A model generated the notes under the pieces. It was not told where the DNA came from and made no database searches. It saw only the letters and a program-made list of their open reading frames with translations. A stretch of DNA of 64,000 nt from contig JASTWF010000334.1 in assembly GCA_030390025.1 (NCBI GenBank), positions 434,001 through 498,000 of the forward strand. Reading direction: 5' to 3'. Source of the DNA: Squalus acanthias. Its lineage: Eukaryota. The position numbers and the translations under genes are program-made. Shown here in pieces: positions 3,963 through 26,626 of this stretch (within the stretch, counting starts at the first letter, position 1; the number at the start of each line of letters is the position of its first letter).

Positions 3963-5673
3963 TGTAGAATTCGCAATATATCACGATTTTATAAATAAGG
4001 AGAAAACACATAGTTTCGTTCAAACAGCTTTTATTTCAGCAGAATGCTGTCAGGTTTTCAAAGTGGACACAAGCAGCTTGTAAAATGGCCGCCACGCCTC
4101 GTGGCAGAACATTCTAGACTTTTCGACAGGCAGACAAGATGGCGTTCCAATAAACATTTGTGCAAGATCGATCAAGACTCAGCACATTTAAGATAATACA
4201 CGAGACATCATGGGTTTGCAGTATACACATAAATACTGAAATCGGTCTCCCAGGTGCGAATAAGGGCTATTGTACCAAGTAATCAAGAACCCATCCAAAG
4301 ACATTAATATGCAAAATCCCAACGACTCTACGATGAGAGAGCCGTTAGCGGGTAGTTACAGAAAACATGTGGAAGCCCCAAAACCCCTCCAGGGAGAACA
4401 CCGACCGATTAAACAATGGGAAAAGTATTAACAGGTACTCAGACAATTACGAGTATCCCCGAAACCCATTAAAACGGAGATCACCCTATACAAGAAATTT
4501 GAGCGCCAAACCCTAACAAAAGACAAGACATTAAGGTTGGGCGGGAAAAGGAAGATTTTGCACTATAACTGCAAGCTCCAACCGTCCATCTTTCTCTTAT
4601 CCTCTTATTCGGTTGACTCTTATCCTCGTGGCTGCTCCTGTTGCTCTTATCCTTTCGACTCCTTGCCGCCTGCCTCGTGTCTCTGCCTCTTGCAGCTTTT
4701 AAAGACTGTTGAACTTTACGATCCGCTCGGATCTACCTCGTGGCGTGCCGCGAAGATCTGTGTGGAACTGGGCTCTGAAGCCTTGAAGCGGGCGCACCAT
4801 CCCGAGAAGTCGGTAAACGGTGTTGGAACCGAAGGCCCGAGATGAGATGAGATGAGATGAGATGAGATGAGAAGAGAAGAACACCATACGTATTGCCACG
4901 GTCAGTAAGCTCCGACCGCGCCTGTAGGTCAAATAGACACTTTCCTTGCCAGGAAGACTTCTTCGAGTTTTACAGAACTGCCAGGAAGACTATTCTTCGA
5001 ATTCTATCGCATCAGTGCGAGGGCACAGGAAGACTCTTTTTTGAGCAGTGTCGGAACTCCGAGGACAACACAGATCTTCATGACAGCAGACGGTCCAGCC
5101 TGCTAGCCGGAGCAGAAACGAGTAAACAAGTGGGGTACAGAGACCTCTGATCGACACGTGGGTGCTGCGGTGAAAAACATCCGATCAGAGTTTTCGGAAT
5201 TCTCCGAGTTATCACGAGTGGTGAGCATGAGTCTCGATCCTACAAATCTAGCTTAGGGCAGATATTGATAGGGGAGGGTTTAAGTTTTAAGGATAATTGT
5301 AATGTGTGCCCCCATTTACGATGTGTCGTTCGTTCCTCGTTTCCCTGAAATTAGTTACATAACTGCGTGTAAGATTGTACTGTCATTAATCTGTGCTTAT
5401 GACATGTATTTCGTAATCTTAAATAATATGCAATAAAGATTTTCCATTTCGTACCATTCAACCGGGTCTACCTGAGTTTTACCTCCATTACTGCTCTCGC
5501 ATCTAAGTCCAGTGTCAGAACTGTAAGGGCGAGTGGGTCGAACCACTCACAGGTGTCTAGTGCTCCCAGACTAGCTGGAGACCAGAACAGGCGACAAGGC
5601 CTAACCTCGCACTAGCATCCAGGCTGCACAGAGCCACACGAATCTCACAGGTTCAGAGAGAAAAACCCTTACA
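3963..5673 (+). repeat. Outer provirus 5' LTR (1711 bp)
   Basis: TGTAGAATT...CCCTTACA; near-identical to 24638-26348; TATAA 4564-4568, (GAGAT)n 4839-4872, AATAAA 5432-5437. Confidence 0.97.
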
Positions 5674-5677
5674 GAAA

Positions 5678-7482
5678 ATGGCGACCGCGGCAGGACACTG
5701 GCAGCGAGAGGGTAGTGTGTTGGACTTTGGTGTGAATGTACGAAATGTCATGCAGGAAAAGATAGCAGATTATGTGTTCGGAAAGGTAAATTTAACTAAG
5801 AAATGGATAAGTGACCTGTTAGCGGATAAGAGTCCACTAGAGGCAGCCGAGAGGTGGACAGATAGTAAGGAACATAAAAAGACAGTCGAGAAAGCGGTCT
5901 GGTTAATGTGTTATAAAAGACAAATCCAGATTTCAAACCAGGTCATTACAGCGCAAACAGCTCGGATCAGGCATTTAGAGGAGGAAATGGACGAGAAGGT
6001 CTCTGGAGGGGAGTTGCTCATTAGGAATTTAAGCGCGTTGCACCGAGAACGCCAGGAAATCACCAGTCACCATAAAGCAAAAATAGATTACCTCGAGTGC
6101 CAGGTCACTGAGGCAAAGTTAAGTGAGGGCAGACTAAAGGAACGATGTGCCCGCCAAGCTGCCCAAATAAAAGCCCAGGAAGAGAGCTTAACGGGAGTTA
6201 GGGCGGCATATAAGATGGCTCTTGAGGATAAGTTTCAGGGGGCCGATCATAGCGTCTGCCAAAAGGAGATAGAACACCTTAAAAGGGCCGTGAACAAAGC
6301 GCACGGCATGGTGTGCCTTATCAGTCCATCAGCACACCAGCCACTAGTAGATGAGGAGTTTCAGAAATTCCCACCCAATAAAGCAAAGGAAGTATTAGCC
6401 ACTACGCCCTCCGCGCCACCCAGCTATTCGGAAACCTGGGTAAGGGAGGAAGTAGTAGAAGAAACGAAAGAGCCCACTGAGGGAGAAGTGGAAAAGGGAC
6501 CGTTGTGTTCGGTTACGGGTATCAAAAGGGGCCCAAACGGGAACGGTGGGGAACAAGGGGATCTCCTCAACCAGCTTGTGTTGCCTCACAGCTCACACCA
6601 GCTGAGGGTTATGATAAGTCACGTACGGAAGCTGACCGAATCAGACGACTCTTCCGTACATTTCAGGGAAGTTGAGCAACCGCAGCCATTAACGGCTGCG
6701 ACGATGGGGAAACAGCAAAGATGCTGTTATTTTCATTAGGTAGTTCGATCCTTCAGTGTCTCTCGGACGAGAGCAAGAGAGGAACCAAAAAATATGAGGC
6801 ACTAAAAAATGAGGTCCTAGAAGTATTGGGGACGGACGATGAAGGTCCGTTTGTTAGAGTGGGACAGACAGTGCAGATGGAGGGAGAACCCCCGAAGGTT
6901 TTCGCCGACAGGCTGTGGCCAGTATATCAGCGCAGCTGTCCAGGTGTGCCAGAGCGCGACGATGTGGAAGGCGTCGGTTTAGCTCATTGGCTCAGGTGTA
7001 TAGTAGCCAACAGTTTGCCAGCCGTCAGAGAGCAGGCAAAAGCGTGGTTTGATCCCACTGACCCCAACATTACGGAGGAGTCGGTCTTAAATCGACTCAC
7101 GGTAGGATACCGTAATATCAGGGGTATGGGAACACGTCCCCTTAAGGGAAAGGTACATGAGGTACGACCCGCAGCCCCGGCTCAAAAGGAGTGGCATCAG
7201 GAGGGTAACCGCGCCCCGCAGGCAAGTAATGCTTGTTACGGGTGTGGGAGGACAGGGCACTGGCGCAAGAACTGCAGGAACCCTTGGAAGGATTCCAGGG
7301 ATAAAAATCCCGCAGCCCGAGCCCAGATGCCTGTCTCTGTTAGGGAAGCTAGTGCACCCACCCCTCCCGACGACCTCGAAACAGTGTTGGGAGCCATGCG
7401 CAACTTCATGAGTGCGCATGGAAAAGTGGCGGTTGCTACCGGCCCCGCAGGTGCCACAGGCCCGTCTAACAATACCCAATGA
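5678..7482 (+). pseudogene. gag: gag of outer provirus (1-bp deletion frameshift ~6680)
   Basis: ORFs 5678-6739 and 6721-7482 join into the equivalent of the intact inner Gag (GAGCAACCG vs GAGCAAGCCG); coiled-coil, PSAPPSY, QMEGEPPKVFADRL, zinc knuckle CYGCGRTGHWRKNC. Confidence 0.93.
5679..5696 (+). promoter_or_regulatory. Primer binding site, complementary to the 3' end of tRNA-Arg(TCG)
   Basis: TGGCGACCGCGGCAGGAC is the reverse complement of GTCCTGCCGCGGTCG-CCA, the vertebrate tRNA-Arg(TCG) 3' end (recalled, not searched); starts 5 nt after the LTR. Confidence 0.85.
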
Positions 7483-10400
7483 CTAGAGCCCGCGCAGTCC
7501 GTCTACCTGTGTCCGCTCAGCTATGATGCGTGGAAGCGACCCTTGGTGGAAATGGAGGTAGAGAAACAGAAGGGTAGTTATTTGTTGGACACGGGAGCTT
7601 CTTGCACCGTGATTCATACAGATAGCCCTTTTGACTCACCGCTATCTACCAAGGTCCCATTCACATTAGCGGGGTTCACGGGAAAAGAACAGGCTGGCGC
7701 GTTCTCCCTTCCGCTATCCATTCGTTTGGGAGCACTCCACATCAAGTGGAAGTGCATACTGATGGAATGGCAGGAGGGGGGTGGGAGAGGTATCCTCGGG
7801 TCCGATCTCCTATCAGGACACGGGATCCTCGTGGACCTCAGGAATTACTGTCTCTGGGGGGCTAAGAGTGAAGAAGGCGAGGTAGTGGTAATTCCGGGGG
7901 AGGAAGAAACAGGGGTCCTGTGTACCATGCAGCCATCCGGAGGGTACGACCTCGGGCTTATGGTCGCAGATGTCCCAACGGACATGCAAACGTACGTGTC
8001 AGATAATATGCACGCGTTTGCAACCCACAAGCACGATTGTGGGAGGGTTACCGGGTTTGAGGTCAGCGTAGATGGGGACCCCATGACCCGGCCCCAAAAG
8101 CAGTATAACTTCCCCAAAGAAGCAGAACCCGATATGGAGACAGCAATGTCCTCCTTGGTGCAGCAGGGCGTGTTGAGGCCGATAGCCACACACGTGAACT
8201 CCCCATTATGGCCAGTTAGGAAGCCGGATAATTCGTGGAGGGCCACGGTGGACTACAGAGTCCTTAACAGTAACATTCCCGCCTGCGCGCCCACGGTAGC
8301 AGCAGTTGCTGACCTAATAGGGAGTATCCCAGCGTCCGCGACCACGTTCACGGTGCTGGATATCTCGAACGGTTTTTGGTCCATCCCGCTGCGGCGAGAG
8401 GACCAGTACAAGTTTGCCTTTACTTTCAAAGGACAACAGTACACATGGAACTGTCTGCCACAGGGTTTCCACAATAGCCCCAGTATTTTCCATCAGTGTA
8501 TGGCAGGAAGTTTAAAGGAGTTTAGTCAGCCCAATCAGATAGTGCAGTACGTGGATGATTTGCTCCTATTTACGGATTCAAAGGAGGAGCATGGACTACT
8601 ACTGGCCGAGTTATTGGAGCTGCTAGCGAGAAAGGGTTTCAAAGTAAATCCTAAGAAAGCACGTATCGGTCAGCAGGAAGTAAAATTCCTGGGGCTGACC
8701 ATTCGCGCTGGGGAAAGAGCCATAGATAAAGCTAGGAGGGAGTCGGTGCAAGAGTTACCGATTCCCAACACCATAAGGGGTGTGAGGTCCTTCTTGGGAC
8801 TGACCGGTTACTGCAGGGATTTTATCGAAGACTATGCGGCCACAGCGGCGCCGCTCCTCCGACTCCTCCATAACGGAGTGGAGTGGTCTTGGGACGAGGG
8901 CTGCCAAGCAGCTTTCGAGAAGTTAAAAAGGGATCTGCAGACCGCGCCAGCCTTAGGGGCCATAGATGGGGGGAAGTAGTTTTTCCTGGAGGTAGCTGCC
9001 AGCGGGGACAGCTTGAGCACTGTGCTGCTCCAAGAGCGTTACGGCAAGCTGAGGCCGGTTGTCTATTCGTCCAGGGTGTTAACGGATGTGGAGAGCAGTT
9101 TCTCCAATTGCGAAAGGCACCTTTTAGCCACGCATTGGGCTGTGAAAAGATCAGCGATCTTCACAGGGCTCTCTCCCATCACTCTCCTCACCCATCATAC
9201 ACCAACTAAGATGCTTCTAGACGGGAGAATTAAAGATGGGACCGTAAGCAGCGTGCGCATTGCGCGCTGGACCCTTCTTCTTTCCCAGATGGATCTTAGA
9301 GTAAAAGGTCTTTGCGAGCCCAGGCTTGCGGCCAATTTGGTATACCCCGGTACAGCCCACCGGTGTTCGGTGGAAGGGGTGTGGGACGTCAACATAGGTT
9401 TGCGGGCCGGGATACATCCCACTGGGCGCGAGATTTATGTTGATGGTTCCAGCACAGTATCTGCTGGCGAACGACTCACAGGGTGTGGAGTTTATGACCC
9501 TGCGGCAAACCTTGCCCTGGCGATCAAGCTCCCTAGCACCATGAGCGCGCAGCAGGCTGAGCTGTCTGCAGTGGTGTACGTCGTTACCCACCCAGACATT
9601 TTCCCAACCCCATACACGATTTGCTCGGACAGTATGTTCACATGTAATTCGTGTACGGAATACCTGGCCATTTGGTCCCGCCGTGGATACACCTCCGCGG
9701 ACGGGCGACCTTTAACGGTGAAGCCCTTGCTGGAAAAGATCCTAGCAGCAGTAGGGGAGGAAGGGGAGATTTTCATCCATAAGGTGAAGGCTCACTCCTC
9801 CACAGAGCCCCGTGGGGAGGGCAACCAGCAGGTGGATGCGCTAGCCAGGGAAGGTGCCCACAACGGCATTTTCTGGGACCCCTATGGGACCAGACCCATG
9901 GCAGCGATCCAAGGCAGGGACGGGAATCCCGGGAACACCAGGGTAGCATTGCCCCTAGACCTTAAGACCGTCCAGAACCAGGATCCCACCCTAAAAGCAG
10001 TCCTCAAAACCATTGCTGAGGGGAAGCAGGTAGAGGGTCCGTACAGTACGGCAACCCTCTCAGTTAAGGAAGGCATGCTGTTCCGCGAGGAGCAGTGGGT
10101 TGTGCCGCAGCAGCACAGGAGGGAATTCCTCCAGTTGGCTCACGAGGGACCAGGGGCAGGGCACCCCAGGCCCGAGGTTACCTGGCAACGGGTAGAGCAA
10201 GCGGGATGGTGGCCAGGGCTCAGGGAACAGGTCCGCGAGTTCTGTGCAAGCTGTCTCGTGTGCGCTGCAAACAACCCAGACCCCCAGAAAAGGAAAGTGC
10301 CCATGGGGCATGTAAGAAGGGTAGAGGGACCATGGCAGTCGATACAGATCGACTATATAGGGCCCCTGCCCACCACCCAGGGAGGCTATAAATACTGCCT

Positions 10401-11818
10401 CGTCTTGGTGGATGTGTTTTCCAAATGGGTGGAAGCCTTCCCCTGTCGAACAGCTACGGCACTGGGTACTGCAAAAATCTTGGTCCGGGAAGTATTCTCG
10501 CGGTGGGGACTCCCCCGTTTTGTGGAGTCAGACCAAGGGAGTCATTTCACCGGCCAGGTGATGCAGAACACCCTCATGCTTTTGGGCATTGAAGGGAAAT
10601 GGCACGTAGCGCACAATCCCCAGTCATCCGGGATTGTTGAACGCATCAACCGGACCCTGAAGGAGAAATTGAGGAAAGAGACTAGGAACTCGCCCCAAAA
10701 ATGGGCGGAGGTTCTGCCTTTAGTCCTCATGGGGGTCCGGGCCAGTCAGTCAAAAAGTACGGGGTATTCGCCGCACGAAGTGATGACTGGGAGGATCATG
10801 CGAACCCCCACCCATGTGCTAGCGCCGGTGCTCACTGAGGGTCAGCTCCAAGAGATAAGCAGGGACAAGTTCGCCCAGACCCTCTTGGAGCGCCTGAAGC
10901 AGGTTTATGAGCAGGCGGCTGGGAACATGGGAAGGCAGCATCAGGGCAATCGCCTGTTGCTGGAACCCCGCAAAACGCGGGAGTGGGAAGTAGGAGACCA
11001 GGTTATGGTCAGAAACTACGCCAGAGTAGGGAGTCTGGAACCACTGTATATGGGACCCTACAACATTGTCGATAAGGCGAGTCCCATGGTTTACGCCGTA
11101 AAGGTACCTCGGCGCACTAAGTGGTTCCACGTAAACCAGTGCAAACTGTACAAGCCAGGTGCACAAGGGAAAACCACAGGGGCAAAACCTGCGAGTGGGG
11201 ACTCGCAGCCCCAGGTAGGACCACAAGGCACACAAGCAGGCAAAGCAGCTTGCATCAGGGAAGGAGACATCCTGGAAAATTGTGAAACATTTTTGTGGGG
11301 TTGGGAGTCAGATGAGGGAGAGTTCCAGGAACTCGAGTCAGATGAGGATAGTGATGAGGACGAGTGGGAATCGGGGAACGCAAGGGTCGCCCCCAATTCA
11401 GGTATAGGGAGGACTGGGGCTGCAGATAGAGATCCACACAGGGTGGACACCGAGGCTGCAGGTCCCGCACACAGGAGGGAGGAGCTAGGGGAGGCGGAGC
11501 CAGCCACTGTGGGACCACAGGGCGTGACGGCGGAAACCTCAGAGCCCGAGCCGCCCGCCTTGAACGTCCTGCCCTCGAGGGAGGTAGGGACTGCGAGTGG
11601 AGGTTCGCCTGCTGGGCCGAGCAGGGCGGTGCCACAAGCTGCAGGTCCCGAGGTCAGGGAGGCGGAGTCAGGGGAGACGGAGCCAGCGACTGTGGTGGGA
11701 CCACAGGTCGTCCCGGTGGAAGTCCCGGAACCCGGTCCGTCAGTCCTGGGTTTCCTGCCCCCGACAACTCCTCGTAGGTCAAGTCGGGCACCCCAGCCCA
11801 GGAAGATGTGGTCATGTC
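7483..11818 (+). pseudogene. pol: pol of outer provirus: PR-RT-tether-RNase H-IN plus acidic/Pro-rich tail; in-frame TAG 8977-8979; tail cut by the inner element (resumes 21344 to ~21495)
   Basis: LLDTGAS, LPQGFHNSP, YVDD; degenerate first RH (LEVAAS..RPVVYSSR..RIARW); second RH (YVDGS, SAQQAEL, SDS, KVKAH, GNQQVDALA); IN H..H..CxxC, IDYIG, SDQGSHF, GIVERINRTLK, GPY. Confidence 0.95.
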
Positions 11819-13568
11819 TGTAGAATTCGCAATATATCGCGATTTTATTAATAAGGAGAAAACACAGAGTTTCGTTCAAACAGCTTTTATTTCAGCAGAA
11901 TGCTGGCAGGTTTAAAGTGGACACAAGCAGCCTGTAAAATGGCCGCCGCACCTCGTGACAGAACATTCTAGACTTTTCAACAGGCAGACAAGATGGCGTT
12001 CCAATAAACATTTGTGCAAGATCGATTAAGATTCAGCACAGTGAAGATAATACACGAGACATTATGGGTTTGCAGTATACACATAGATACTGAAATCGGT
12101 CTCCCAGGTACAAAGGAAAGCCATTGTACCGAGTAATCAAGGGCCCATCCAAAAGACATTAATATGTAAAATCCCAACGACTCTACGATGAGAGAGCCGT
12201 TAGCAGGTAGTTATACAGGACACTTGGAAGCCCCAAACCCCTCCAGGGAGAACACCGACCGATTTAACAATGGGAGAAATATTAACAGGTACTCAGACAT
12301 TTACGAGTAGCCCCGAAACCCATTAAGAACGGAGATCACCCATACAAGACATTTGAGCGCCAAACCCTAAACAAAAGAATGGACATTATAGTTGGGCAGG
12401 AAACGGAAGATTTTGCACTATAATTGCAGGCTCCAAACCGTCCATGCTCTTGCTCTTGCTCTTGCTCTTGCTTTTGCTCTTGCTGCTCTTATCATCGTGG
12501 CTGCTCCTGTGCTCTTATCCGATCGATTCGTAAACCTCGTGGCTGCTCCTGTGTACTCGTAGTTGGGCTCGCCCCTGCTTGCCTGTTGCCTCTTCTGAAA
12601 AGACTGTTGAACTTTCTGATCCGTTCGGATCTACCTCGTGTCGCGTAACGAAGACCTATGTTGGTAACTGGCAGCGGAACCGAAGGCCCGAGATGAGATG
12701 AGATGAGATGAGATGAGATGAGAAGAGAGGAAGACCATATCCATCGCCACGGTCAGTAAATCCCGACCGCGCCTGTAGGTCGATTATCCAAGTTTTCCTT
12801 ACTAGGAAGACTTCTTCGAACTTATAACGAAACATATTGCATCGATGATAACTGGACTGTGCCCAAAGTAACTGGAATGTGAAAACATATCGTATCGACG
12901 ATATTGACAACTGTGCTCCAAGAGTACCTGTTAAACCAACCAACACAGGTCTTCATCACAGCAGACGGTCCAGCCTGCTAGCCGGAGCAGCAGAAGCAAG
13001 TAAACAAGTGGGACCAGGAGATCTCCTGACCGACACGTGGGTGCTGCGGTGAAAAACATCCGATCAGCTATTCGGAATTTCTCCGAGTTATCACGAGTGG
13101 TGAGCATGAGTCTCGAAATCCTACGAATCTAGTTTAGGATAGATATTGATAGGGGAGGGTTTAAGGATTAAGGATATTTGTAATGTGTGCCCCTATTTAC
13201 TTTGTGCCGTTCGTTCCTCGTTTCCCTAAGATCGACTATATAACTGTTTGTAAGATTGTACTGTCATTAATCTGTGCTTATGACATGTATTTCATAATCT
13301 TAAGTATCATGCAATAAAGATTTTCCATTTCGTACCATTCAAACCAAGTCTACATGAGTTTCATCTCCATTACTGCTCTCGCATCTAAGTCCAGTGTCTA
13401 GAACCGTAAGGGAGAGTGATTCGAACCACTCACAGGTGTGTCTAGTGTTCCCAGACTGGCTGGAGACCAGAACAGGCAACAAGGCCTAGACCCGCACTGA
13501 CATACAGGCTGCACAGAGCCGCGTGAATCTCACAGGCTGCGAGACACGCACGGTCAGAATCCCTTACA
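11819..13568 (+). repeat. Inner provirus 5' LTR (1750 bp)
   Basis: TGTAGAATTCGC...CCCTTACA; essentially identical to 19590-21339. Confidence 0.97.
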
Positions 13569-13572
13569 GAAA

Positions 13573-15384
13573 ATGGCGACCGCGGCAGGACACTGGCAGC
13601 GAGAGGGTAGTGTGTTAGATTTTGGAATGACTGTACGAAATGTTATGCAGGAAAAGATAGCAGATTATGTGTTTGGAAAGGTTAATCTAACTAAGAAATG
13701 GATAAGTGAATTGTTAGCGGATAAGAGCCCACTAGAGGCAGCTGAAAGGTGGACAGATAGTAAAGAACATAAAAAGACACTTGAGAAAGCAGTCTGGCTT
13801 ATGTGTTACAAAAGGCAGGTTCAGATTTCCAACCAGACCATTACAGCGCTAGTAGCTCGAATCAGTCATTTAGAGGGAGAAATGGAGGAGAAGGTTTCTG
13901 GAGGGGAGGTGCTCATTAAGAATTTAAATGAGTTACACCAAGAAAGCCAGGAAGTCTCCAGTCACCTTAAAACAAGGATAGATTATCTCGAGTGCCAGGT
14001 CACTGAGGCAAAATTGAATGAGAGCAGGTTAAAGGAAAGATGTAACCGCCAAGCTGCCCAGATAAGAACTCAAGAAGAGAGCTTGACGGGGGTTAGGGCG
14101 GCATATAAGTTGGCCCTTGAGGATAAGTTTCAGGGAGCCGATCATAGCGCCTGCCAAAGGGAGATAGAGCACCTCAAAAAGGCCGTGAACAATGCGAACG
14201 GCATGGTGTGCCTTATCAATCCGTCGGCGCACCAGCCGCTAGTAAATGAGAGATTTAGAAAATCCCCACCAAGTAAAGCAGAAGAAGTAGTAGCCACTGC
14301 GCCCTCCGCGCCACCCAGCTATTCAGAAACCTGGGTTAGGGAGGAAGCAATGGAAGAAACAAAAGAGCCCATTGAAAAAGAAGTAGGAAAGGGATCGTTA
14401 TATCCAGTAACGGGTATTAAAAGGGGCCCAAGCAGAAACGGTGGGGAAGAACCGGGGGATCTCCTCGGACAGCTGGTGTTGCCTCACAGTTCACATCAGC
14501 TGAGAGCTATGATAAATCACGTACGGAAGCTGACCGAGGCAGACGACCCTTCCGTACATTTCAGAGAAGTTGAGCAAGCCGCAGCCATTAACGGCTGCGA
14601 TGATGGGGAAACAGCAAAAATGCTGCTGTTCTCATTAGACAGCTCGGTCCTTCAGTGTCTCTCAGGCGAGAGCAAGAGGGGAACCAAGAGTTATGAGGAA
14701 TTAAAGAATGAGGTCCTGGAAGTGTTGGGGGCGAACGACGAAGGTCCGTTTGCTAGAGTGGGACAGACAGTGCAGATGGAGGGAGAACCCCCGAAGGTTT
14801 TTGCCGACAGGCTGTGGCCAGTATATGAGCGCAGCTGTCTAGGTGCGCCCGAGCGCGAAGATGTGGAAGGTTTAGCTTTAACTCATTGGCTTAGGTGCAT
14901 AATAGCCAACAGTTTACCAGCCGTCAGAGAGCAGGCAAAAGCATGGTTTGATCCCAATGACCCCAACATTACGGAAGAGTCGGTCTTGAATCGACTCACG
15001 TTAGGTTATCGCAATATAAGGGGTATGGCAACACGTCCCCTTAAGGGAAGAGTACATGAGGTACGACCCGCAGCCCCGTATCAAAGAGAGTGGCATCAGG
15101 AGGGTAATCGCGCCCCACAGGCAAGTAATGCTTGTTACGGGTGTGGGAAGACAGGGCACTGGCGCAAGCATTGCAGGAACCCTTGGAAGGATTCCAAGGA
15201 TAAAAATCCCGCGGTCCGAGCCCAGGCGCCTGTCCCGGCTAAGGAAGCCAAGGCACCCACCCCTCCCGACGACCTCGAAGCAGTGTTAGGAGCCATGCGC
15301 AAGCTGGTCTTGAATGCGCGTGGACAGGTGGCGGTCGCAACCGGCCCCGTAGGTGCCGCAGGACTGTCTAATAGTACCCAATGA
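13573..15384 (+). CDS. gag: Intact Gag (603 aa), inner provirus
   Basis: Uninterrupted ORF; coiled-coil, PSAPPSY (14302-14322), capsid MHR-like motif, CYGCGKTGHWRKHC knuckle. Confidence 0.93.
   Translation: MATAAGHWQREGSVLDFGMTVRNVMQEKIADYVFGKVNLTKKWISELLADKSPLEAAERWTDSKEHKKTLEKAVWLMCYKRQVQISNQTITALVARISHLEGEMEEKVSGGEVLIKNLNELHQESQEVSSHLKTRIDYLECQVTEAKLNESRLKERCNRQAAQIRTQEESLTGVRAAYKLALEDKFQGADHSACQREIEHLKKAVNNANGMVCLINPSAHQPLVNERFRKSPPSKAEEVVATAPSAPPSYSETWVREEAMEETKEPIEKEVGKGSLYPVTGIKRGPSRNGGEEPGDLLGQLVLPHSSHQLRAMINHVRKLTEADDPSVHFREVEQAAAINGCDDGETAKMLLFSLDSSVLQCLSGESKRGTKSYEELKNEVLEVLGANDEGPFARVGQTVQMEGEPPKVFADRLWPVYERSCLGAPEREDVEGLALTHWLRCIIANSLPAVREQAKAWFDPNDPNITEESVLNRLTLGYRNIRGMATRPLKGRVHEVRPAAPYQREWHQEGNRAPQASNACYGCGKTGHWRKHCRNPWKDSKDKNPAVRAQAPVPAKEAKAPTPPDDLEAVLGAMRKLVLNARGQVAVATGPVGAAGLSNSTQ
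13574..13591 (+). promoter_or_regulatory. Primer binding site (tRNA-Arg), inner provirus
   Basis: TGGCGACCGCGGCAGGAC, identical to the outer PBS. Confidence 0.85.
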
Positions 15385-16377
15385 CTAGAGCCCACGCAGC
15401 CTGCCTACCTGTGTCCTTTTAAAAGACACGCACAGGAGGGGGTCTGCGGTGAGGAGGCCAGGTTAAAAGAGCAGGCCTTGCGGGAGGAGAACGCCCGCTT
15501 AATAGGGAAAATAGATGGGCTGGAAGGGCAGCTTAGAGAGCAGGCCCTGCGGGAGGAGAACGCCCGAGCAATGGGAAAGTTAGACGTGCTCAGGCTAGAA
15601 GCGCAGCTTAGTGAGATAAAAGCAGCCTACAGGGTAGCCAAAAGCCGGGAGTATGAGGATGTAAACCAATGCAAACTGTACCAGCCAGGTGCGCAAGGGA
15701 AAACTACAGGGGTAAATCCCGCCAATGGGAAAGCACAGCCCCAGGTAGGACCACAAGGCACACAGGCAGGCATAGCAGCTTGCATCAGGGGAAGGGACAT
15801 CCCGGACGATCATGCAGCGTTTTTCTGGAATTGGGGGTTAGATGAGGAAGAATTCAGGGTACCCGGGTCAGATGAGGATAGTGCAGATGAGGATAGTGAT
15901 GACGACGGGTGGTTTCGGAGGAACGGTCCCTTTTACGATATGGAGGGGACGGGGGCTGCAGGTAGAGATCCACACAGGGTGGACACACGAGCTGCAGGTC
16001 CCGAAGACAGGAGGGAGGAGCTAGAGGAGGCAGGGCCAGCCGCTATGGGAGCACAGAGAGTACCGGTGTGGCTCCCAGAGATGTGGCCGCCCGCTTTGAA
16101 CGTCCAGTCCTCAGGGGAGGCAGAGATCACGAGTGAAGGGCCGCCTGCTGGGCCGAGCAGGGCGGAGCCACGAACTGCCAGCCCCGAGGTTAGGGAGGCG
16201 GAGTCAGCGGAGGCGGAGCCAGCGACTGTGATGGAACCCCAGGTCATCCCGATGGAAGTCTCGGAACCCGGTCCGTCCGTCACGGAAACCCCGCCCATAG
16301 CAACTCCCCGTAGGTCAAGTAGAGAACCCCAGGAGGATGTGGTCATGTCCCCAGACTGCCCCAAGGCGGAAATTTAA
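15385..16377 (+). CDS. In-frame post-Gag ORF: pol N-terminal stub + novel coiled-coil + integrase C-terminal tail (no enzyme domains)
   Basis: Open from the gag TGA to TAA 16375-16377: LEPTQPAYLCP (pol stub), EQALREENAR x2..IKAAYRVAK, then VNQCKLY.. homologous to outer 11131 onward. Confidence 0.75.
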   Translation, partial: LEPTQPAYLCPFKRHAQEGVCGEEARLKEQALREENARLIGKIDGLEGQLREQALREENARAMGKLDVLRLEAQLSEIKAAYRVAKSREYEDVNQCKLYQPGAQGKTTGVNPANGKAQPQVGPQGTQAGIAACIRGRDIPDDHAAFFWNWGLDEEEFRVPGSDEDSADEDSDDDGWFRRNGPFYDMEGTGAAGRDPHRVDTRAAGPEDRREELEEAGPAAMGAQRVPVWLPEMWPPALNVQSSGEAEITSEGPPAGPSRAEPRTASPEVREAESAEAEPATVMEPQVIPMEVSEPGPSVTETPPIATPRRSSREPQEDVVMSPDCPKAEI

Positions 16378-16628
16378 GGTTAAGATAACCCAGATACAGA
16401 CCGGCCACATCGCAGCAGTAACAGGCTGCGGCAGATCAGAGGGAAGGGTCAGTGCCCTCCCACCGTCGGGAAGAGCTCGCAGCAGCCTTCTCAGAATTTA
16501 AAGGGGCCGCCCTGAGAACGGGTGGCACTGTATAGTAAGTAGTAATAAGTTTAAGTTTATAGTTCAAGGTTAAGTTTTATGTTTTATTAAGGTTAAGTTT
16601 GTCGTGTTTTTTAACAGAAAACGATAAA

Positions 16629-19140
16629 ATGATGGGAGCTTTAAAGATAGGTTTAGTTGAAGTTTATTCAGCGAACGTTGAAGTTTACGTGAGGCGAGGT
16701 CAGGGGACCCGCTCACCCTTCACAAAAGCCAGAGACTCTTGCGAGGCTGGCTACCTCATTCTATCTGATCACAGGAACCAAGGAAGGATGGAACGAATTC
16801 TAGTATTGCTCGTGGCAATCGGATGTGGATTGGCCTATCGAGGCCGCACCAAGGATGTCGTGGTGTTTGGATGTTCCGGGGACACGGCCCCCATCGCGGT
16901 GGATGGGACCGGAAGACGGGAGGCAGAGGAGACCAGCACCTATTTCCACAAGGGAAGGTGGCCAGGATGGCTGGGAACGAACTCAACGGAGTATTCCAGC
17001 ACATCGGGGTTTGCCTACCAAGAGACTTCTTTACTGTGCCCCAAAGTAAGGATCATCGCACCCAGGATCAGCGTCACCGTCGGCAAACGGATTTGTTTGA
17101 CTTGTAGTGGGAAGGTCCCATTGAGCCGATGGTGGTGGCTGCGAAAGCTGAGCAAAACTATGAGGAACTCTTCGGTCGAGTGGGAACGACTGGGTAATAA
17201 TACCCATCGGACAATTACGGGGACAGACGGACAAGTGAAAGTCTGTTGGGACAAATGGTGGGAACCGGATGAGGGAATTTATGTATGTATGTGGGGGTCA
17301 AAGTACGTTTGCCCCAAAGGCATCTCCATATTTTTCATTAATCAATGGCAGGATAACGGACAGGGGATGAGGTGGGATGCGAGCACCAGGGGGTGCGGAG
17401 CCCCATTCTCCCCGATCCCAGTAAATGCCACTGAGCTCATTACGCGCCCACGCAAAGCCCCGCCCACGATTCCGGTGGTTCTAGCTGAGGAAGAAGGGTG
17501 CCCTAAAACTAGTAAGGGACCCGGGAATGGTTTGGTACTGGTCCCCACAGACCAGATACTATTTCAGGGGGTACATTACGCGGTGGCCTCGGTGATTTTA
17601 AATCTCACTGAGGTGCGGTTACCAGAGTGGTGCCCCAAAAAGACGGAACAGTTGTACCAGGTCCTGTTGACCAAGATGTTCAGACAATTTTACGAATTCG
17701 ATTTCGCGGAAATTGATAAAACAAGTTTGTACACCGCACCACAGGAAGTTTTGGATCAAGTAGGGAGGCAAAGAAGGGGTTTGGTGAACGATGCGTTCAC
17801 TGCTTTTAACACAGGTACATCTGTGGTCAACGCTCTAGACAGTGTGGAGCTGCAGACCCAGATTAATGGTTTAAAGACACAATTAAAGGACATTCTAACA
17901 GATGAGAATAAAGTGGTAGGGTCGGGTCTACACGAGGACCAAGCCATGACCCTCCATTTAAAGGAAATTATAGCAGAGTTGGAGAAACATGCAAAGACGG
18001 TAAATGCCCTGATTAGGGAAGATCGGAATGCATCCGATCAAGCTGCGCAGAACGAGGTGTGCGTGCTTTACGGGGCGTGGTTACTGGGCGAGGGCCGCAG
18101 TAATTTGGAGGATTTAAAACAAGGTTTGGTTCCGTCCTGGATAAGTAACAAACACCTACGGGCGCTCCACCCTTTTCAGAACGCATTAAGCCCGTGCCAG
18201 CTCAGGCTAGCTTCAGAAGCATACCCAGTCCCCGTGGACTGTGGACGATCAAACCATACCATCATGGGTATAGTTTTACGTATGCCGGTTTTGGGCGACA
18301 CAGCAAAGCCCGCCCCGGTATATCGGGTAGAAAACATTGGTGTCATTCAGGGGGGGAGCCCACATTCGTTATGCAGCGGTTCCACCTTACGTCATCCGCT
18401 GGGAGCAAACGATGACAGGTACAGATCTCTCTGGTTGTCGTGGCAGGGGAGCACACATAATACTGTGCCCCCAGCACTTGAATGCCTTTTTAACACCACA
18501 GTGCGGGTTCAGAACGGCTGGCGCCAAGTCCATGAATTGCACCATGGAGGCAATGGCACAAGATCATGTGCCTCCGCAGGTAGCATACATCGGGGGTGGA
18601 ACATATTGTGTTACCACTGCAGCGCAACACTACCAGCATGGAAACCGTAGCCGGTGTCCGGTGAGTGACAGCAGTTTCTGTTTTAAACCCAGGGCGGAAG
18701 TTCAAGTAGCACAACAGCGAATTATCCCAATCCCTGAACCATCCACTGTTCATCTCACAGTAAAAGAGAATTTCACCGACTTGCAGCGATTCGTCGCGCA
18801 TTTTGGATACCTCATTCCCCCTCTCCCTGAACACCTCACCAAGCTTTTGAAAGCCGTCGCGGTGTCACAGAAACATTTTTATACATTAGAGCAGAAAACT
18901 GTCGAAATAGGAACAGACATTTTGGATATAGTAGTTCCACCGTGGTGGAATCTGTTCACCAATATTGAAGTACCTTCATGGATCAGAATAGCCTCCCACA
19001 TTTTAGTCGTATGCCAAGTTTTCATTGTAGTGTACCTATTGGTCGTACATTGTAAAAGAGACAAACGCCTCACCAAGCATGAAAACACGGGAGAGTGGCG
19101 AGAACGTTACGTGCGCGTGCACGATGAGAGCACCGTGTAA
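16629..19140 (+). CDS. env: env of inner provirus (one extra G in a G7 run ~18350 shifts frame; mutation or homopolymer error)
   Basis: Signal-like MERILVLLVAIGCGLA (16788), Ig motif, furin RQRR 17766-17777, fusion peptide and heptads, Cys-rich region, TM ILVVCQVFIVVYLLVV; candidate splice acceptor TTTTAACAG just upstream. Confidence 0.88.
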
Positions 19141-19577
19141 TCGGAAAATGGCGTCACTCCCGCTCGCCGCGTGCGCCGCGGAAGTTTGTACTCATATAAG
19201 ATTTTCAGAGATTGTAAATACGTTGGGAACTCGACATGTTAAGAGTTGGTGTTGATTTATTTTGGTGATGGTGTTACAGTTAAAAATGATTGTTTGGTTT
19301 TGGGTTTTGTTTTTCCTTTCCCTGAATAAAAGATGAATATACAGGTGATACGAGAGGCATCGGCCTGGTTACGCCGGGAAGGAAAACAAGTGGTGTAAGT
19401 TTAAGGGCAAATAATGCCTACGGTGATATAAAATGTAATTTTCTTGGGAAATGAGGACGACACAGAGACCCTAGCTAAGTTAAAATTATGGGATTAATTT
19501 ACTGGATTCGGAGAGAAATCGAGATAATATTGCTCACCACTATGATTTTTGATACGATAAGCGGAGTTATTCGCATC

Positions 19578-19589
19578 AACAGGAGGGAC
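19578..19589 (+). promoter_or_regulatory. Polypurine tract, inner provirus
   Basis: AACAGGAGGGAC abuts the 3' LTR; the same sequence is at 24626-24637. Confidence 0.8.
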
Positions 19590-21339
19590 TGTAGAATTCG
19601 CAATATATCGCGATTTTATTAATAAGGAGAAAACACAGAGTTTCGTTCAAACAGCTTTTATTTCAGCAGAATGCTGGCAGGTTTAAAGTGGACACAAGCA
19701 GCCTGTAAAATGGCCGCCGCACCTCGTGACAGAACATTCTAGACTTTTCAACAGGCAGACAAGATGGCGTTCCAATAAACATTTGTGCAAGATCGATTAA
19801 GATTCAGCACAGTGAAGATAATACACGAGACATTATGGGTTTGCAGTATACACATAGATACTGAAATCGGTCTCCCAGGTACAAAGGAAAGCCATTGTAC
19901 CGAGTAATCAAGGGCCCATCCAAAAGACATTAATATGTAAAATCCCAACGACTCTACGATGAGAGAGCCGTTAGCAGGTAGTTATACAGGACACTTGGAA
20001 GCCCCAAACCCCTCCAGGGAGAACACCGACCGATTTAACAATGGGAGAAATATTAACAGGTACTCAGACATTTACGAGTAGCCCCGAAACCCATTAAGAA
20101 CGGAGATCACCCATACAAGACATTTGAGCGCCAAACCCTAAACAAAAGAATGGACATTATAGTTGGGCGGGAAACGGAAGATTTTGCACTATAATTGCAG
20201 GCTCCAAACCGTCCATGCTCTTGCTCTTGCTCTTGCTCTTGCTTTTGCTCTTGCTGCTCTTATCATCGTGGCTGCTCCTGTGCTCTTATCCGATCGATTC
20301 GTAAACCTCGTGGCTGCTCCTGTGTACTCGTAGTTGGGCTCGCCCCTGCTTGCCTGTTGCCTCTTCTGAAAAGACTGTTGAACTTTCTGATCCGTTCGGA
20401 TCTACCTCGTGTCGCGTAACGAAGACCTATGTTGGTAACTGGCAGCGGAACCGAAGGCCCGAGATGAGATGAGATGAGATGAGATGAGATGAGAAGAGAG
20501 GAAGACCATATCCATCGCCACGGTCAGTAAATCCCGACCGCGCCTGTAGGTCGATTATCCAAGTTTTCCTTACTAGGAAGACTTCTTCGAACTTATAACG
20601 AAACATATTGCATCGATGATAACTGGACTGTGCCCAAAGTAACTGGAATGTGAAAACATATCGTATCGACGATATTGACAACTGTGCTCCAAGAGTACCT
20701 GTTAAACCAACCAACACAGGTCTTCATCACAGCAGACGGTCCAGCCTGCTAGCCGGAGCAGCAGAAGCAAGTAAACAAGTGGGACCAGGAGATCTCCTGA
20801 CCGACACGTGGGTGCTGCGGTGAAAAACATCCGATCAGCTATTCGGAATTTCTCCGAGTTATCACGAGTGGTGAGCATGAGTCTCGAAATCCTACGAATC
20901 TAGTTTAGGATAGATATTGATAGGGGAGGGTTTAAGGATTAAGGATATTTGTAATGTGTGCCCCTATTTACTTTGTGCCGTTCGTTCCTCGTTTCCCTAA
21001 GATCGACTATATAACTGTTTGTAAGATTGTACTGTCATTAATCTGTGCTTATGACATGTATTTCATAATCTTAAGTATCATGCAATAAAGATTTTCCATT
21101 TCGTACCATTCAAACCAAGTCTACATGAGTTTCATCTCCATTACTGCTCTCGCATCTAAGTCCAGTGTCTAGAACCGTAAGGGAGAGTGATTCGAACCAC
21201 TCACAGGTGTGTCTAGTGTTCCCAGACTGGCTGGAGACCAGAACAGGCAACAAGGCCTAGACCCGCACTGACATACAGGCTGCACAGAGCCGCGTGAATC
21301 TCACAGGCTGCGAGACACGCACGGTCAGAATCCCTTACA
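19590..21339 (+). repeat. Inner provirus 3' LTR (1750 bp)
   Basis: Direct repeat of 11819-13568, followed by TSD TGTC. Confidence 0.97.
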
Positions 21340-21652
21340 TGTCCCCAGACTGCCCCAAGGCGCAGGCTCAAGGTTAAGGCAGCCCAGGAAGGGCCCAGTC
21401 CCATCGCAGCAGCAACAGGCTGCGGCAGATCAAAGGAAGGGGTCAGTGCCCTCCCACTGTCGGGAAGAGCTCGCAGCAGCCTTCTCAGAATTTAAAGGGG
21501 CCGCCCTGGGAACGGGCGGCGCTGTACAGTTTATAAGTTTCTAGGTTTATAGTTTAAGGTTAAGAATAAGTTTATAGTATTAGATAAGGTTATAAGTTTA
21601 TAGTTTTAAATCAGGTTACGTTTGTAGTTTAATTTTAACAGAAAATGGTAAA

Positions 21653-24190
21653 ATGATGGGAGCTTTAGAGATAGGTTTAGTTAAAGTTTATTCAGCGAAC
21701 ATTGAAGTTTACGTGAGGCGAGGTCAGGGGACCCGCTCACCCTTCACAAAAGCCAGAGACTCTTGCGAGGCTGGCTACCTCATTCTATCTGATCACAGGA
21801 ACAAAGGAAGAATGGAACGAATTATAGTATTGCTCGCGGCAATCGGATGTGGATTGGCCTATCGAGGCCGCACCAAGGATGTCGTGGTGTTTGGATGCTC
21901 CGGGGACACGGCCCCCATCGCGGTGGATGGGACCGGAAGGCGGGAGGCTGAGGAGACCACCACCTATTTCCACAAGGGAAGGTGGCCAGGATGGCTGGGA
22001 ACGAACTCAACGGAGTATTCCAGCACATCGGGGTTTGCCTACCAAGAGACTTCTTTAATGTGCCCCAAAGTAAGGATCATCGCACCCAGGATCAGCGTCA
22101 CCGTCGGCAAACGGATTTGTTTGACTTGTAGTGGGAATGTCCCATTGAGCCGATGGTGGTGGCTGCAAAAGCTGAGCAAAAACATGAGGAACTCTTCGGT
22201 CGAGTGGGAACGACTGGGTAATAATACCCATCGGACAATTACGGGGACAAACGGACAAGTGAGAGTCTGTTGGGACAAATGGTGGGAACCGGATGAGGGA
22301 ATTTATGTATGTATGTGGGGGTCAAAGTACGCTTGCCCCAAAGGCATCTCCATATTTTTCATTAATCAATGGCAGGTTAACGGACAGGGGATGAGGTGGG
22401 ATGCGAGCACCAGGCGGTGCGGAGCCCCATACTCTTCGATCCCGGTAAATGCCACTGAACTCATTACGCGCCCACGCAAAGCCCCGCCCACGATTCCGGT
22501 GGTTCTAGCTAAAGAGGAAGGGTGCCCTAAAACCAGTAAGGGACCCGGGTGCCCTAAAACCAGTAAGGGACCCGGGAATGGTTTGGTACTGGTCCCCACA
22601 GACCAGATACTATTTCAGGGGGTACATTACGCGGTGGCCTCGGTGATTTTAAATCTCACCGAGGTGCGGTTACCAGAGTGGTGCCCCAAAAAGACGGAAC
22701 AGTTATATCAGGTCCTGTTGACCAAGATGTTCAGACAATTTTACGAATTCGATTTCGCGGAAATTGATAAAACAAGTTTGTACACTGCACCACATGAAGT
22801 TTTTGATCAAGTGGGGAGGCAAAGAAGGGGTGTAGTGAACGACGCGTTCACTGCTTTTAACACGGGTACATCTGTGGTCAACGCTCTAGACAGTGTGGAG
22901 CTGCAGACCCAGATTAATGGTTTAAAGACGCAATTAAAAGACATTCTAACAGATGAAAATAAGGTGGTTGGGTCGGGTTTACACGAGGACCAAGCCATGA
23001 CTCTCCATTAAAAGGAAATTATAGCAGAGCTAGAGAAACACGCGAGAACGGTAAATGCCCTGATTAGGGAAGATCGGAATGCATCCGATCAAGCTGCGCA
23101 GAATGAGGTGTGCGTGCTTTATGGGGCGTGGTTACTGGGCGAGGGCCGCAGTAATTTGGAGGATTTAAAACAAGGTTTGGTCCCGTCCTGGATAAGTAAC
23201 AAACACCTGCGGGCGCTCCACCCTTTTCAGAACGCATTAAGCCCGTGCCAGCTCAGGCTAGTTTCAGAAGCATACCCAGTCCCCGTGGACTGCGGACGAT
23301 CAAACCATACTATCATGGGTATAGTACTACGTATGCCGGTTTTGGGCGACACAGCAAAGCCCGCCCCGGTGTATCGGGTAGAGAACATTGGTGTCATTCA
23401 CGGGGGAGCCCACATTCGCTATGCAGCGGTTCCACCCTACGTCATCCGCTGGGAGCAAACGATGACAGGTACAGATCTCTCTGGTTGTCGTGGCAGGGGA
23501 GCACACATAATACTGTGTCCCCAGCACTTGAATGCCTTTTTAACACCACAGTGCGAGTTCAGAACGGCTGGCGCCAAGTCCATGAATTGCACCATGGAGG
23601 CAATGGCACAAGATCATGTGCCTCCGCAGGTAGCATACATCGGGGGTGGAACATATTGTGTTACCACTGCAGCGCAACACTACCAGCATGGAAACCGTAG
23701 CCGGTGTCCGGTGAGTGACAGCAGTTTCTGTTTCAAACCCAGGGCGGAAGTTCAAGTTGCACAACAGCGAATTGTCCCAATCCCTGAACCATCCACTGTT
23801 CATCTAACAGTAAAAGAGAATTTCACCGACTTGCAGCGATTCGTCGCGCATTTCGGATACCTCATTCCCCCTCTCCCTGAACACCTCATCAAGCTTTTGA
23901 AAGCCGTCGCGGTGTCACAAAAACATTTTTACACACTGGAGCAGAAAACTGTCGAAATAGGGACAGACATTCTGGATATAGTAATTCCACCGTGGTGGAA
24001 TCTGTTCACCAACATTGAAGTGCCTTCATGGATCAGAATAGCCTCCCACATTTTAGTTGTATGCCAAGTGTTTATTGCAGTGTACCTATTGGTCGTACAT
24101 TGTAAGAGAGGCAAACGCCTCACCAAGCACGAAAACACGGGAGAGTGGCGAGAACGTTACGTGCGCGTGCACGACGAAAGCACCGTGTAA
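21653..24190 (+). pseudogene. env: env of outer provirus (nonsense TTA>TAA at 23009-23011)
   Basis: ORFs 21653-23011 and 23108-24190 share a frame; colinear with the inner env; 27-bp duplication GCPKTSKGP x2. Confidence 0.92.
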
Positions 24191-24637: not shown

Positions 24638-26348
24638 TGTAGAATTTGCAATATATCACGATTTTATAAATAAGGAGAAAACACATAGTTTCGTTCAAAC
24701 AGCTTTTATTTCAGCAGAATGCTGTCAGGTTTTCAAAGTGGACACAAGCAGCTTGTAAAATGGCCACCACGCCTCGTGGCAGAACATTCTAGACTTTTCG
24801 ACAGGCAGACAAGATGGCGTTCCAATAAACATTTGTGCAAGATCGATCAAGACTCAGCACATTTAAGATAATACACGAGACATCATGGGTTTGCAGTATA
24901 CACATAAATACTGAAATCGGTCTCCCAGGTGCGAATAAGGGCTATTGTACCAAGTAATCAAGAACCCATCCAAAGACATTAATATGCAAAATCCCAACGA
25001 CTCTACGATGAGAGAGCCGTTAGCGGGTAGTTACAGAAAACATGTGGAAGCCCCAAAACCCCTCCAGGGAGAACACCGACCGATTAAACAATGGGAAAAG
25101 TATTAACAGGTACTCAGACAATTACGAGTATCCCCGAAACCCATTAAAACAGAGATCACCCTATACAAGAAATTTGAGCGCCAAACCCTAACAAAAGACA
25201 AGACATTAAGGTTGGGCGGGAAAAGGAAGATTTTGCACTATAACTGCAAGCTCCAACCGTCCATCTTTCTCTTATCCTCTTATTCGGTTGACTCTTATCC
25301 TCGTGGCTGCTCCTGTTGCTCTTATCCTTTCGACTCCTTGCCGCCTGCCTCGTGTCTCTGCCTCTTGCAGCTTTTAAAGACTGTTGAACTTTACGATCCG
25401 CTCGGATCTACCTCGTGGCGTGCCGCGAAGATCTGTGTGGAACTGGGCTTTGAAGCCTTGAAGCGGGCGCACCATCCCGAGAAGTCGGTAAACGGTGTTG
25501 GAACCGAAGGCCCGAGATGAGATGAGATGAGATGAGATGAGATGAGTAGAGAAGAAGACCATACGTATTGCCACAGTCAGTAAGCTCCGACCGCGCCTGT
25601 AGGTCAAATAGACACTTTCCTTGCCAGGAAGACTTCTTCGAGTTTTACAGAACTGCCAGGAAGACTATTCTTCGAATTCTATCGCATCAGTGCGAGGGCA
25701 CAGGAAGACTCTTTTTTGAGCAGTGTCGGAACTCCGAGGACAACACAGATCTTCATGACAGCAGACGGTCCAGCCTGCTAGCCGGAGCAGAAACGAGTAA
25801 ACAAGTGGGGTACAGAGACCCCTGATCGACACGTGGGTGCTGCGGTGAAAAACATCCGATCAGAGTTTTCGGAATTCTCCGAGTTATCACGAGTGGTGAG
25901 CATGAGTCTCGATCCTACAAATCTAGCTTAGGGCAGATATTGATAGGGGAGGGTTTAAGTTTTAAGGATAATTGTAATGTGTGCCCCCATTTACGATGTG
26001 TCGTTCGTTCCTCGTTTCCCTGAAATTAGTTACATAACTGCGTGTAAGATTGTACTGTCATTAATCTGTGCTTATGACATGTATTTCGTAATCTTAAATA
26101 ATATGCAATAAAGATCTTCCATTTCGTACCATTCAACCGGGTCTACCTGAGTTTTACCTCCATTACTGCTCTCGCATCTAAGTCCAGTGTCAGAACCGTA
26201 AGGGCGAGTGGGTCGAACCACTCACAGGTGTCTAGTGTTACCAGACTGGCTGGAGACCAGAACAGGCGACAAGGCCTAACCTCGCACTAGCATCCAGGCT
26301 GCACAGAGCCACACGAATCTCACAGGTTCAGAGAGAAAAACCCTTACA
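24638..26348 (+). repeat. Outer provirus 3' LTR (1711 bp)
   Basis: Direct repeat of 3963-5673, followed by TSD GGCA. Confidence 0.97.
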
Positions 26349-26626
26349 GGCATGGAGAACAACATGAATGAAACCAACCCGCAACCCCTAAGCCGTCCAA
26401 GGCAGCAATGAGTCCAAAGACCAAACATGTACATTTTGAATACAAAAACTTATTTATTTTACAAACTCTCTGTGTGTCATTTCTTCATGACAAACTAATA
26501 GAAACAAATACAAAAAATCATTCATTAACATAACTGGTTCTCACAACCTGGAGATAATGTCCAAAACACTAAACAAAAGTTTGAACGCGAACCTCGGCCT
26601 TTAATAAAAAATTGACCAACATTTCG

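Follow-up and report, generated by a model that had tools for sequence, protein, structure and literature searches.

Endogenous retroviruses whose defective forms outnumber their helpers are an already known kind of element, as exemplified by the mouse intracisternal A-particle (IAP) element 1-delta-1, the ETn/MusD pair and the D-type elements of cattle ERVK[2-1-LTR], and only for very few of them is it understood by which mechanism they outbreed their helpers. Chicken EAV-HP and koala recKoRV are further endogenous retroviruses whose common form is without most of pol; to our knowledge, neither an in-frame helix cassette nor a conserved readthrough frame has been described for them. The element treated here lies in a stretch of 64,000 nucleotides from Squalus acanthias (GenBank assembly GCA_030390025.1, contig JASTWF010000334.1, positions 434,001 to 498,000 of the forward strand), which as a whole is called the window and whose positions are counted from its first letter. 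It is a provirus (11819-21339) of a family of more than 1,000 copies in which all enzyme domains of pol are replaced in frame by a helix-coding stretch and the kept tail of the integrase. The frame behind the gag stop codon is open in most copies, while amino-acid change behind the UGA looks neutral and gag itself is constrained.

The likenesses to the described systems are considerable. In IAP 1-delta-1, as here, a chimeric frame has stayed open across an internal deletion; proteins have to be supplied to the element in trans, as they would to the present family, and the deleted form is highly successful, being predominant among copies (PMC6466679). ETn, which causes most new insertions, is likewise a non-autonomous long terminal repeat (LTR) element relying on a coding relative (PMC6466679). 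In cattle, defective D-type elements outnumber competent ones (85% vs 15%), dominate new insertions and are read as parasites of a parasite (PMC10924933). Moreover, gammaretroviral gag and pol form one frame with a single stop between them, and readthrough ribosomes translate far downstream (PMC6277124). The literature, as far as it is covered by the sources retrieved in the search, describes neither this family nor any pol-less endogenous retrovirus with an in-frame helix cassette.

In-frame replacement of pol

Two related proviruses are nested in the window, the inner one being inserted at the pol end of an older, outer one (3963-26349), whose pol sequence picks up again beyond the insertion according to blastn. 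The outer pol thus serves as the yardstick for the inner element, and the features concerned are as follows.

13570 to 15384, forward strand: gag of the inner provirus, with an N-terminal coiled-coil region and one CCHC knuckle, ending in TGA (15382-15384)
15382 to 15388, forward strand: UGA-CUAG, the presumed readthrough site
15385 to 15416, forward strand: retained start of the pro/pol frame, 32 bases (not 31), encoding LEPTQPAYLCP
15417 to 15660, forward strand: insert of 244 bp, read in the pol frame
15661 to 16377, forward strand: low-complexity tail following the integrase SH3 domain, in the pol frame
16499 to 16501, forward strand: natural pol stop TAA, used by the pol-less family and by full-length relatives, out of frame in the window copy
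7483 to 11818, forward strand: pol of the outer provirus, comprising protease, reverse transcriptase (RT), RNase H, integrase and tail, cut at 11818 by the inner provirus

The breaks in homology at 15416 and 15661, described in the earlier note from the letters of the window, were confirmed by blastn: the inner stretch 12941-15416 corresponds to outer 5066-7514 at 87.3% identity, and 15661-16349 corresponds to outer 11131-11818 at 78.9%. Between them, outer 7515-11130 (3616 bp) is swapped for inner 15417-15660 (244 bp), a difference of 3372 = 3 x 1124 bases which leaves the frame intact. The loss begins 11 codons into the pro/pol frame, ahead of the protease active site, and reaches as far as the last strand of the SH3 domain of the integrase (residues 682-724 of the open reading frame 8980-11820), where homology restarts at VNQCKLY. 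According to Pfam matches on the outer pol, the lost stretch comprises protease, RT, RNase H, the integrase zinc and core domains and SH3.

The inner gag frame (13501-15384), open from 13501 with its first ATGs at 13573 and near 13624, extends behind its TGA as an open frame at 15385-16377, so that gag and the post-UGA frame are contiguous, in phase and joined by a putatively leaky stop context. Within these 330 residues, zero enzyme domains are found, and the sole Pfam match is a sub-threshold coiled coil. That the frame runs open as far as the TAA at 16377 was seen correctly, whereas this TAA is private to the window copy. The latter is without 5 bases after 16327 which are present in 29 of 29 other copies, and the last codons are therefore shifted so that the frame ends at TAA 16375-16377. 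In other copies it runs on to the natural pol stop (...SSLLRI-stop), giving 369-419 aa. Besides, the antisense, codon-aligned frame of the tail is open too (15933-16373, reverse strand, 146 aa; up to 278 aa in full-length copies); this openness probably follows from a codon composition dominated by acidic residues, Pro and Gly.

Family size, junction forms and helpers

All candidate counts given here are first-look counts, identity having been measured on scored subsets, and every sample of copies was drawn by likeness to one copy. For the junction stretch, 1340 candidates were obtained, and all 40 scored places are 100% identical; the insert peptide yielded 2680 candidates in the genome, with 150 of 150 scored being 95-100% identical. 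The deletion is present in 29 of 29 places drawn on the gag end. Its 5' junction is identical across many contigs and is bridged also by contigs of two further runs (X4, X10). Taken together, the contigs of the four runs covered, these two included, show the junction and both of the forms distinguished below, with no splice joints among them. Over 3.3 kb, the divergence of other copies from that in the window is 1-5%. Both LTRs were found in 10 of 11 other full copies, and the LTR pairs of 8 further measurable full copies are 98.8-99.9% alike.

A sister form, form 2, shares the 5' junction, carries an insert of 324 bp and rejoins pol 47 bases later, at outer 11178. It is likewise in frame, is represented by at least 710 candidates for its specific stretch, and was seen on gag backgrounds 92% and 99% like that of the window. 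One copy with a third repeat unit of 75 bases is also in frame. Length variants of the tail are common, including a 39-base unit (13 residues) present once or twice at 16420-16455 and a 12-base unit in the acidic tract at 15929-15940. Nearly every combination of the markers (form, -12, +39) was found, a pattern indicative of recombination between lineages or of repeat slippage that has recurred.

Pol-bearing relatives are present in the same genome, namely the outer provirus and 29 further loci with integrase end and tail; for the integrase end of the outer family, 2729 first-look candidates were found, with 97-99% identity. The yardstick provirus itself is broken by a gag frameshift near 6700 and by stops in pol (8977-8979) and env (23009-23011). 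A full-length parent of the inner lineage was not found among the 29 places drawn on the gag end, and one loose end in run X10 suggests that it exists. Copy number, young LTR pairs and the missing enzymes together argue for mobilisation in trans by the Pol of full-length relatives. Among 11 full copies, gag is intact in 10 and the post-UGA frame in 10, and env has its full length (836 aa) in 5; it is broken in 5 others and has 703 aa in the sixth. These counts hint that an env of its own is dispensable for the pol-less family.

Pol-less elements also occur in head-to-tail, LTR-sharing arrays of at least three units (int-LTR-int-LTR-int-LTR), e.g., at C3311:2260600-2278436 and C16:35639000-35657500. 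About 16 of the 40 junction hits are paired at distances of 7.6-8.2 kb. As neighbouring units differ from each other, recent duplication does not account for them; growth of arrays at the DNA level or recombination of cDNA with resident LTRs may have contributed to the copy number.

Sequence and origin of the insert

The translation of the insert contains EQALREENAR twice, 23 codons (69 nt) apart, together with IKAAYRVAK, just as had been noted beforehand, and its DNA has an internal repeat (15455-15540/15525-15615, 76%). Frame 0 shows 0 stops in 92 codons and the other forward frames 6-9, which indicates a coding sequence captured in its own frame. AlphaFold2, run without alignment, predicts a single continuous helix at residues 21-96 (76 residues), corresponding to the insert; the predicted local distance difference test (pLDDT) reaches block values of 84-97 for residues 21-80, while nearly all of the remainder stays below 50 and the tail is predicted to be disordered. 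Of the proposed coiled coil, the long helix is thus borne out by prediction, and the heptad register is not uniform: in the best single register, just 55% of the a/d positions are hydrophobic.

The search for a donor, which had been envisaged as either a related gag or a host gene, gave none in the window, among protein representatives, in the ESM Atlas or in the genome itself. In the window, blastn and tblastn with the insert returned nothing beyond the internal repeat and a weak tblastn match to the gag coiled coil. When 77 insert residues were compared by phmmer with 1.84 billion representatives, the 2 hits obtained were weak (E 1e-5) and of a generic coiled-coil kind, one of them being a bacterial repeat protein unrelated to Gag. 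Matches in the ESM Atlas score at most 0.88, none reaching 0.9, and are all generic coiled coils. In the own genome, form-2-specific DNA and the 109-aa peptide retrieved only family copies among the best-scored candidates, where a donor of lower identity would not show. The insert shares its motif order with the Gag coiled coil, i.e., GxE, (K/R)IDxLExQ, AAY(R/K) and CL. Still, this likeness, on which the earlier note had laid weight, turned out not to be specific: over shuffles, the alignment reaches z values of 5.0-6.4 for the inner and 3.5-4.3 for the outer gag, whereas an unrelated coiled-coil protein, at 6.6-7.4, does no worse. A recent origin from the gag of the element itself is excluded by the absence of DNA similarity in an element whose remainder is 79-90% identical to its relative; a distant gag is a possible donor.

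Maintenance of the open frame

Of the copies drawn on the junction, 24 of 29 have a post-UGA frame that runs open as far as the pol stop, as do 22 of 29 drawn on the gag end and 12 of 12 of form 2, corresponding to 51 of the 60 distinct copies pooled; among form-2 copies from the protein search, it is open in 138 of 150 (373-419 aa). The nine broken frames among the 60 copies are all due to frameshifts or rearrangements, with zero nonsense substitutions. Considering the 132 post-UGA variant sites of these 60 copies and the window copy, 0 nonsense variants stand against 4.0 expected (P = 0.022), the expectation being taken from spectrum-matched shuffles in which the same base changes are placed at random. 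Other copies were thus searched for the stops and frameshifts at neutral rates which would speak for a decaying frame, and these were not encountered.

The indels follow the same direction. All seven of 12 bases or more are multiples of three (-12 twice, -18, -21, +39, +75 and the 33-base difference between the forms), and the out-of-frame indels are the -5 of the window copy and 1-base deletions. The adjacent non-coding stretch before env (16500-16628), by comparison, contains indels of 1, 2, 4, 5, 7, 13 and 16 bases. The tails of the inner and outer families differ at about 20% of sites, yet both are open over about 280 codons, whereas the other forward frames of the tail hold 8-14 stops. 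Among the full-length relatives, 22 of 29 are open from SH3 to the natural pol stop.

Residue change behind the UGA

While gag is clearly constrained, with a ratio of non-synonymous to synonymous polymorphism (pN/pS) of 0.27-0.28 against 1.0-1.5 in control frames, the retained leader and the insert together give 0.95 (4 synonymous and 13 non-synonymous sites), and the pooled counts of 7 synonymous and 22 non-synonymous sites are close to the expected 7.5 and 19.8. The tail of the pol-less copies has a pN/pS of 0.55-0.58 against 0.73-1.16 in control frames; its pooled counts are 34 synonymous and 69 non-synonymous sites, with 30 and 70 expected. In total, 41 synonymous sites were counted behind the UGA against 37 expected. 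Pairs of form-2 copies gave 0.91 for the insert, 0.83 for the tail and 0.40 for gag, and singleton and shared variants do not differ.

Between the inner and outer families, the ratio of non-synonymous to synonymous divergence (omega) is 0.81-1.0 for the tail (synonymous divergence, dS, 0.22-0.26; non-synonymous divergence, dN, 0.18-0.25) and 0.28 for gag (dS 0.45). In the tail of the full-length family, frame 0 at 0.84 resembles the control frames at 0.79-0.83, and no codon-position signal was detected. The pol-less copies show 81 variant sites in the 666 nt of the tail and 17 in the 276 nt of leader and insert. An unusual conservation of the insert was considered and rejected, as the low diversity of form 2 reflects sampling and the gag-drawn sample shows the same variant density as gag.

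Amino-acid change behind the UGA thus looks neutral. Residues of this kind fit poorly with the residue-specific adaptor or decoy role which had been proposed for the insert, and that role found no support here. Likewise, the suggestion that the tail has its own function is left with the openness of the frame as its sole basis.

Stop context and RNA features

The gag TGA is kept in 60 of 60 distinct copies and the full UGA-CUAG context, whose retention in the window copy had been noted together with that of the integrase tail, in 59 of 60. A fusion product would accordingly need readthrough. CUAG after UGA is described as the shared mark of validated human readthrough genes (10.64898/2026.07.14.738498; PMC4132726), and this context suggests that the UGA is read through by ribosomes. 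A predicted hairpin, placed 6-7 bases behind the stop, has a 10-bp stem in which the last kept pol bases (15404-15414) would pair with insert bases (15430-15439) across the junction; no such hairpin was found in the full-length relative (z +0.25). A pyrimidine tract ending in AG (about 16598-16617), directly upstream of env, looks like a splice acceptor and lies downstream of the pol stop, so that the tail is not needed for it.

Readthrough can be of consequence for the RNA itself. The readthrough elements of murine leukaemia virus (MLV) and Colorado tick fever virus are reported to inhibit decay, with ribosomes translating past the stop, out-of-frame stops further downstream likely prevent the removal of UPF1, and readthrough as low as 1.5% protects the RNA (PMC6277124).

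Interpretation of the open frame

The explanation tentatively preferred here is that of a helper-dependent, pol-less parasite whose open post-UGA frame serves a sequence-tolerant role, namely the shielding of its unspliced RNA from nonsense-mediated decay. Full-length relatives would supply Pol in trans to the pol-less genomes. Some ribosomes would pass the UGA-CUAG and run on to the old pol stop, thereby clearing about 1.1 kb behind the gag stop, and the long unspliced RNA thus cleared would be shielded from decay. The Gag-helix-tail protein would be a low-level by-product, entering particles via its Gag part.

Several points weigh against this explanation. Translation would clear just about 1.1 kb of the roughly 5.9 kb behind the gag stop, the hairpin has little statistical weight (z -1.9 with 99 nt and -0.5 with 59 nt), and both the readthrough of the UGA and the sensitivity of the RNA to decay are deduced from sequence and from the analogy with MLV. 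Truncated frames persist and are shared, e.g., one of 177 aa at 3 loci with one common frameshift, and among the 150 form-2 copies shortened frames of 131 aa (three times), 198 aa (four times) and 164 aa (twice) recur; such frame-broken sets may spread as DNA, some being in tandem arrays. The very recent copy in the window itself is without the last 56 or so codons of the family. Moreover, the statistics are modest (P about 0.02, with variants that are not independent), repeats with codon periodicity tend in any case to gain or lose bases in multiples of three, and the tail may be exchanged with helper genomes by recombination, so that conservation of the frame may be partly inherited from them.

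A somewhat doubtful alternative is that the Gag-helix-tail readthrough protein is itself functional as a stand-in for Gag-Pol, acting either in cis to the benefit of the pol-less genome or in competition with the Gag-Pol of helpers. It draws on the same open frame as the explanation by RNA shielding and adds to it the confident prediction of the insert as one 76-residue helix, the mild constraint on the tail of the pol-less copies relative to control frames, and the precedent of the IAP 1-delta-1 fusion protein, which is reported to act in cis (PMC6466679). Against it, the residues of the insert look neutral in the leader and insert counts as well as in the form-2 pairs, where the tail looks much the same, and singleton and shared variants are alike. 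Additionally, the likeness of the insert to the Gag coiled coil is generic, and copies with shortened tails persist.

That the frame is a functionless leftover, the deletion having fallen in frame by chance (one in three) in copies too young for decay, is unlikely. The copies are indeed young, with LTR pairs 98.8-99.9% identical and 100% in the window copy, and neutral-looking amino-acid change, the frame-broken sublineages and the lack of a codon-position signal in the tail of the full-length family are all in line with it. Such a leftover does not account for two separate junction forms that are both in frame, for longer indels which are all in frame next to a non-coding stretch with indels of all lengths, or for the lack of nonsense variants. 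Further points against it are that, of the 11 full copies, 5 have a broken env and a sixth a shortened one while the post-UGA frame is broken in 1, and that the tails of two families stay open across about 20% divergence with 8-14 stops in their other frames.

Quite unlikely is the further reading that helix and tail are an evolved satellite gene, i.e., a Gag-Pol mimic favouring pol-less genomes over their helpers in packaging or assembly, which spreads between retroviral lineages by recombination with its frame kept; if true, it would be the first dedicated parasite-of-a-parasite protein in a vertebrate retrovirus.

The retention of the integrase-tail stretch as RNA, that is, as a cis element for export or polysome loading of unspliced RNA with a frame open merely through its pol origin, is compatible with the other readings and in itself improbable: the tail does change equally at all codon positions between families and more slowly than gag synonymous sites (dS 0.22-0.26 and dN 0.18-0.25 against dS 0.45), splicing alone leaves 840 kept bases unexplained given the position of the acceptor-like tract, and gag RNA is loaded on polysomes by pol fragments of MLV and XMRV that work in cis at the RNA level (PMC4174252), but the missing stops and in-frame indels stay unexplained and no other part of the pol-less copies is as variable as the tail.

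Genomic surroundings

The remaining features of the two proviruses are listed below.

11815 to 11818, forward strand: left copy of the target-site duplication TGTC, read from the flanks, with the right copy at 21340-21343
11819 to 13568, forward strand: 5' LTR of the inner, pol-less provirus, 1750 bp with TG...CA ends
16629 to 18650, forward strand: env of the inner provirus, 673 aa in the window copy
19590 to 21339, forward strand: 3' LTR of the inner provirus, identical to the 5' LTR over its full length
3963 to 5674 and 24638 to 26349: LTRs of the outer provirus, 99.24% alike with 13 mismatches, flanked by a GGCA duplication
21596 to 24190: env of the outer provirus, with a stop inside at 23009-23011

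Because its two LTRs are identical and flanked by the 4-bp duplication TGTC, the inner provirus is taken to have integrated very recently. A TGG-led stretch five bases past the 5' LTR (13569-13595) resembles a primer-binding site; as the first gag ATG (13573) lies inside it, gag more likely starts near 13624. The env had no match to any Pfam family or solved chain, and the zf-CCHC match of the outer gag, at 19.5 bits, remains under the Pfam cut-off of 20.8. The RT of the window's pol is about equally near to solved gammaretroviral (E 3e-54) and foamy (2e-53) RTs, and the closest solved structure to its integrase is that of prototype foamy virus (E 1e-32).

Outside the proviruses, a 23-bp satellite forms an array of 7.9 kb (38415-46284; 347 units, 92% matches), and the reverse complement of its unit forms a 0.5-kb array at 30593-31122, 7 kb upstream of the main array. 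Dispersed repeats of 77-91% identity pair 33693-35084 with 62228-63616, 54002-54959 with 60981-61916 and 1542-1841 with 56640-56939; they probably represent other mobile elements, and long open frames lie near them on the minus strand.

Comparison with known systems

This family marks a very recently active group of retroviruses in a large vertebrate genome and amounts to a natural experiment, offering thousands of young copies, two junction forms and a gag under selection. A frame of 370-420 codons which is open while its residues drift allows being translated to be separated from making a particular protein. If confirmed, it would mean that readthrough behind gag is valuable in itself, be it for RNA protection or as a tolerant extension of Gag, with no enzyme downstream.

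What sets the family apart from the described defective retroviruses is the combination of a kept gag stop, the loss of every enzyme domain, a foreign helix-coding stretch in two junction forms and a retained env. ETn, its coding capacity lost, carries a non-retroviral sequence which is not known to be read as protein; unlike there, the replacing stretch here is in frame. In MLV, readthrough uses a pseudoknot. The MLV stop is UAG (PMC4178896), whereas the present family has UGA-CUAG, no convincing structure and no enzyme downstream. The cattle D-type elements are described as being without functional genes (PMC10924933), in contrast to a gag under purifying selection and a long open post-UGA frame here. 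IAP 1-delta-1, finally, owes its fusion to a 1.9-kb deletion which joins gag directly to pol, is env-less and moves inside the cell (PMC6466679), whereas the present family has retained both the gag stop and env and, in place of every enzyme domain, carries a foreign insert that codes for a predicted helix.

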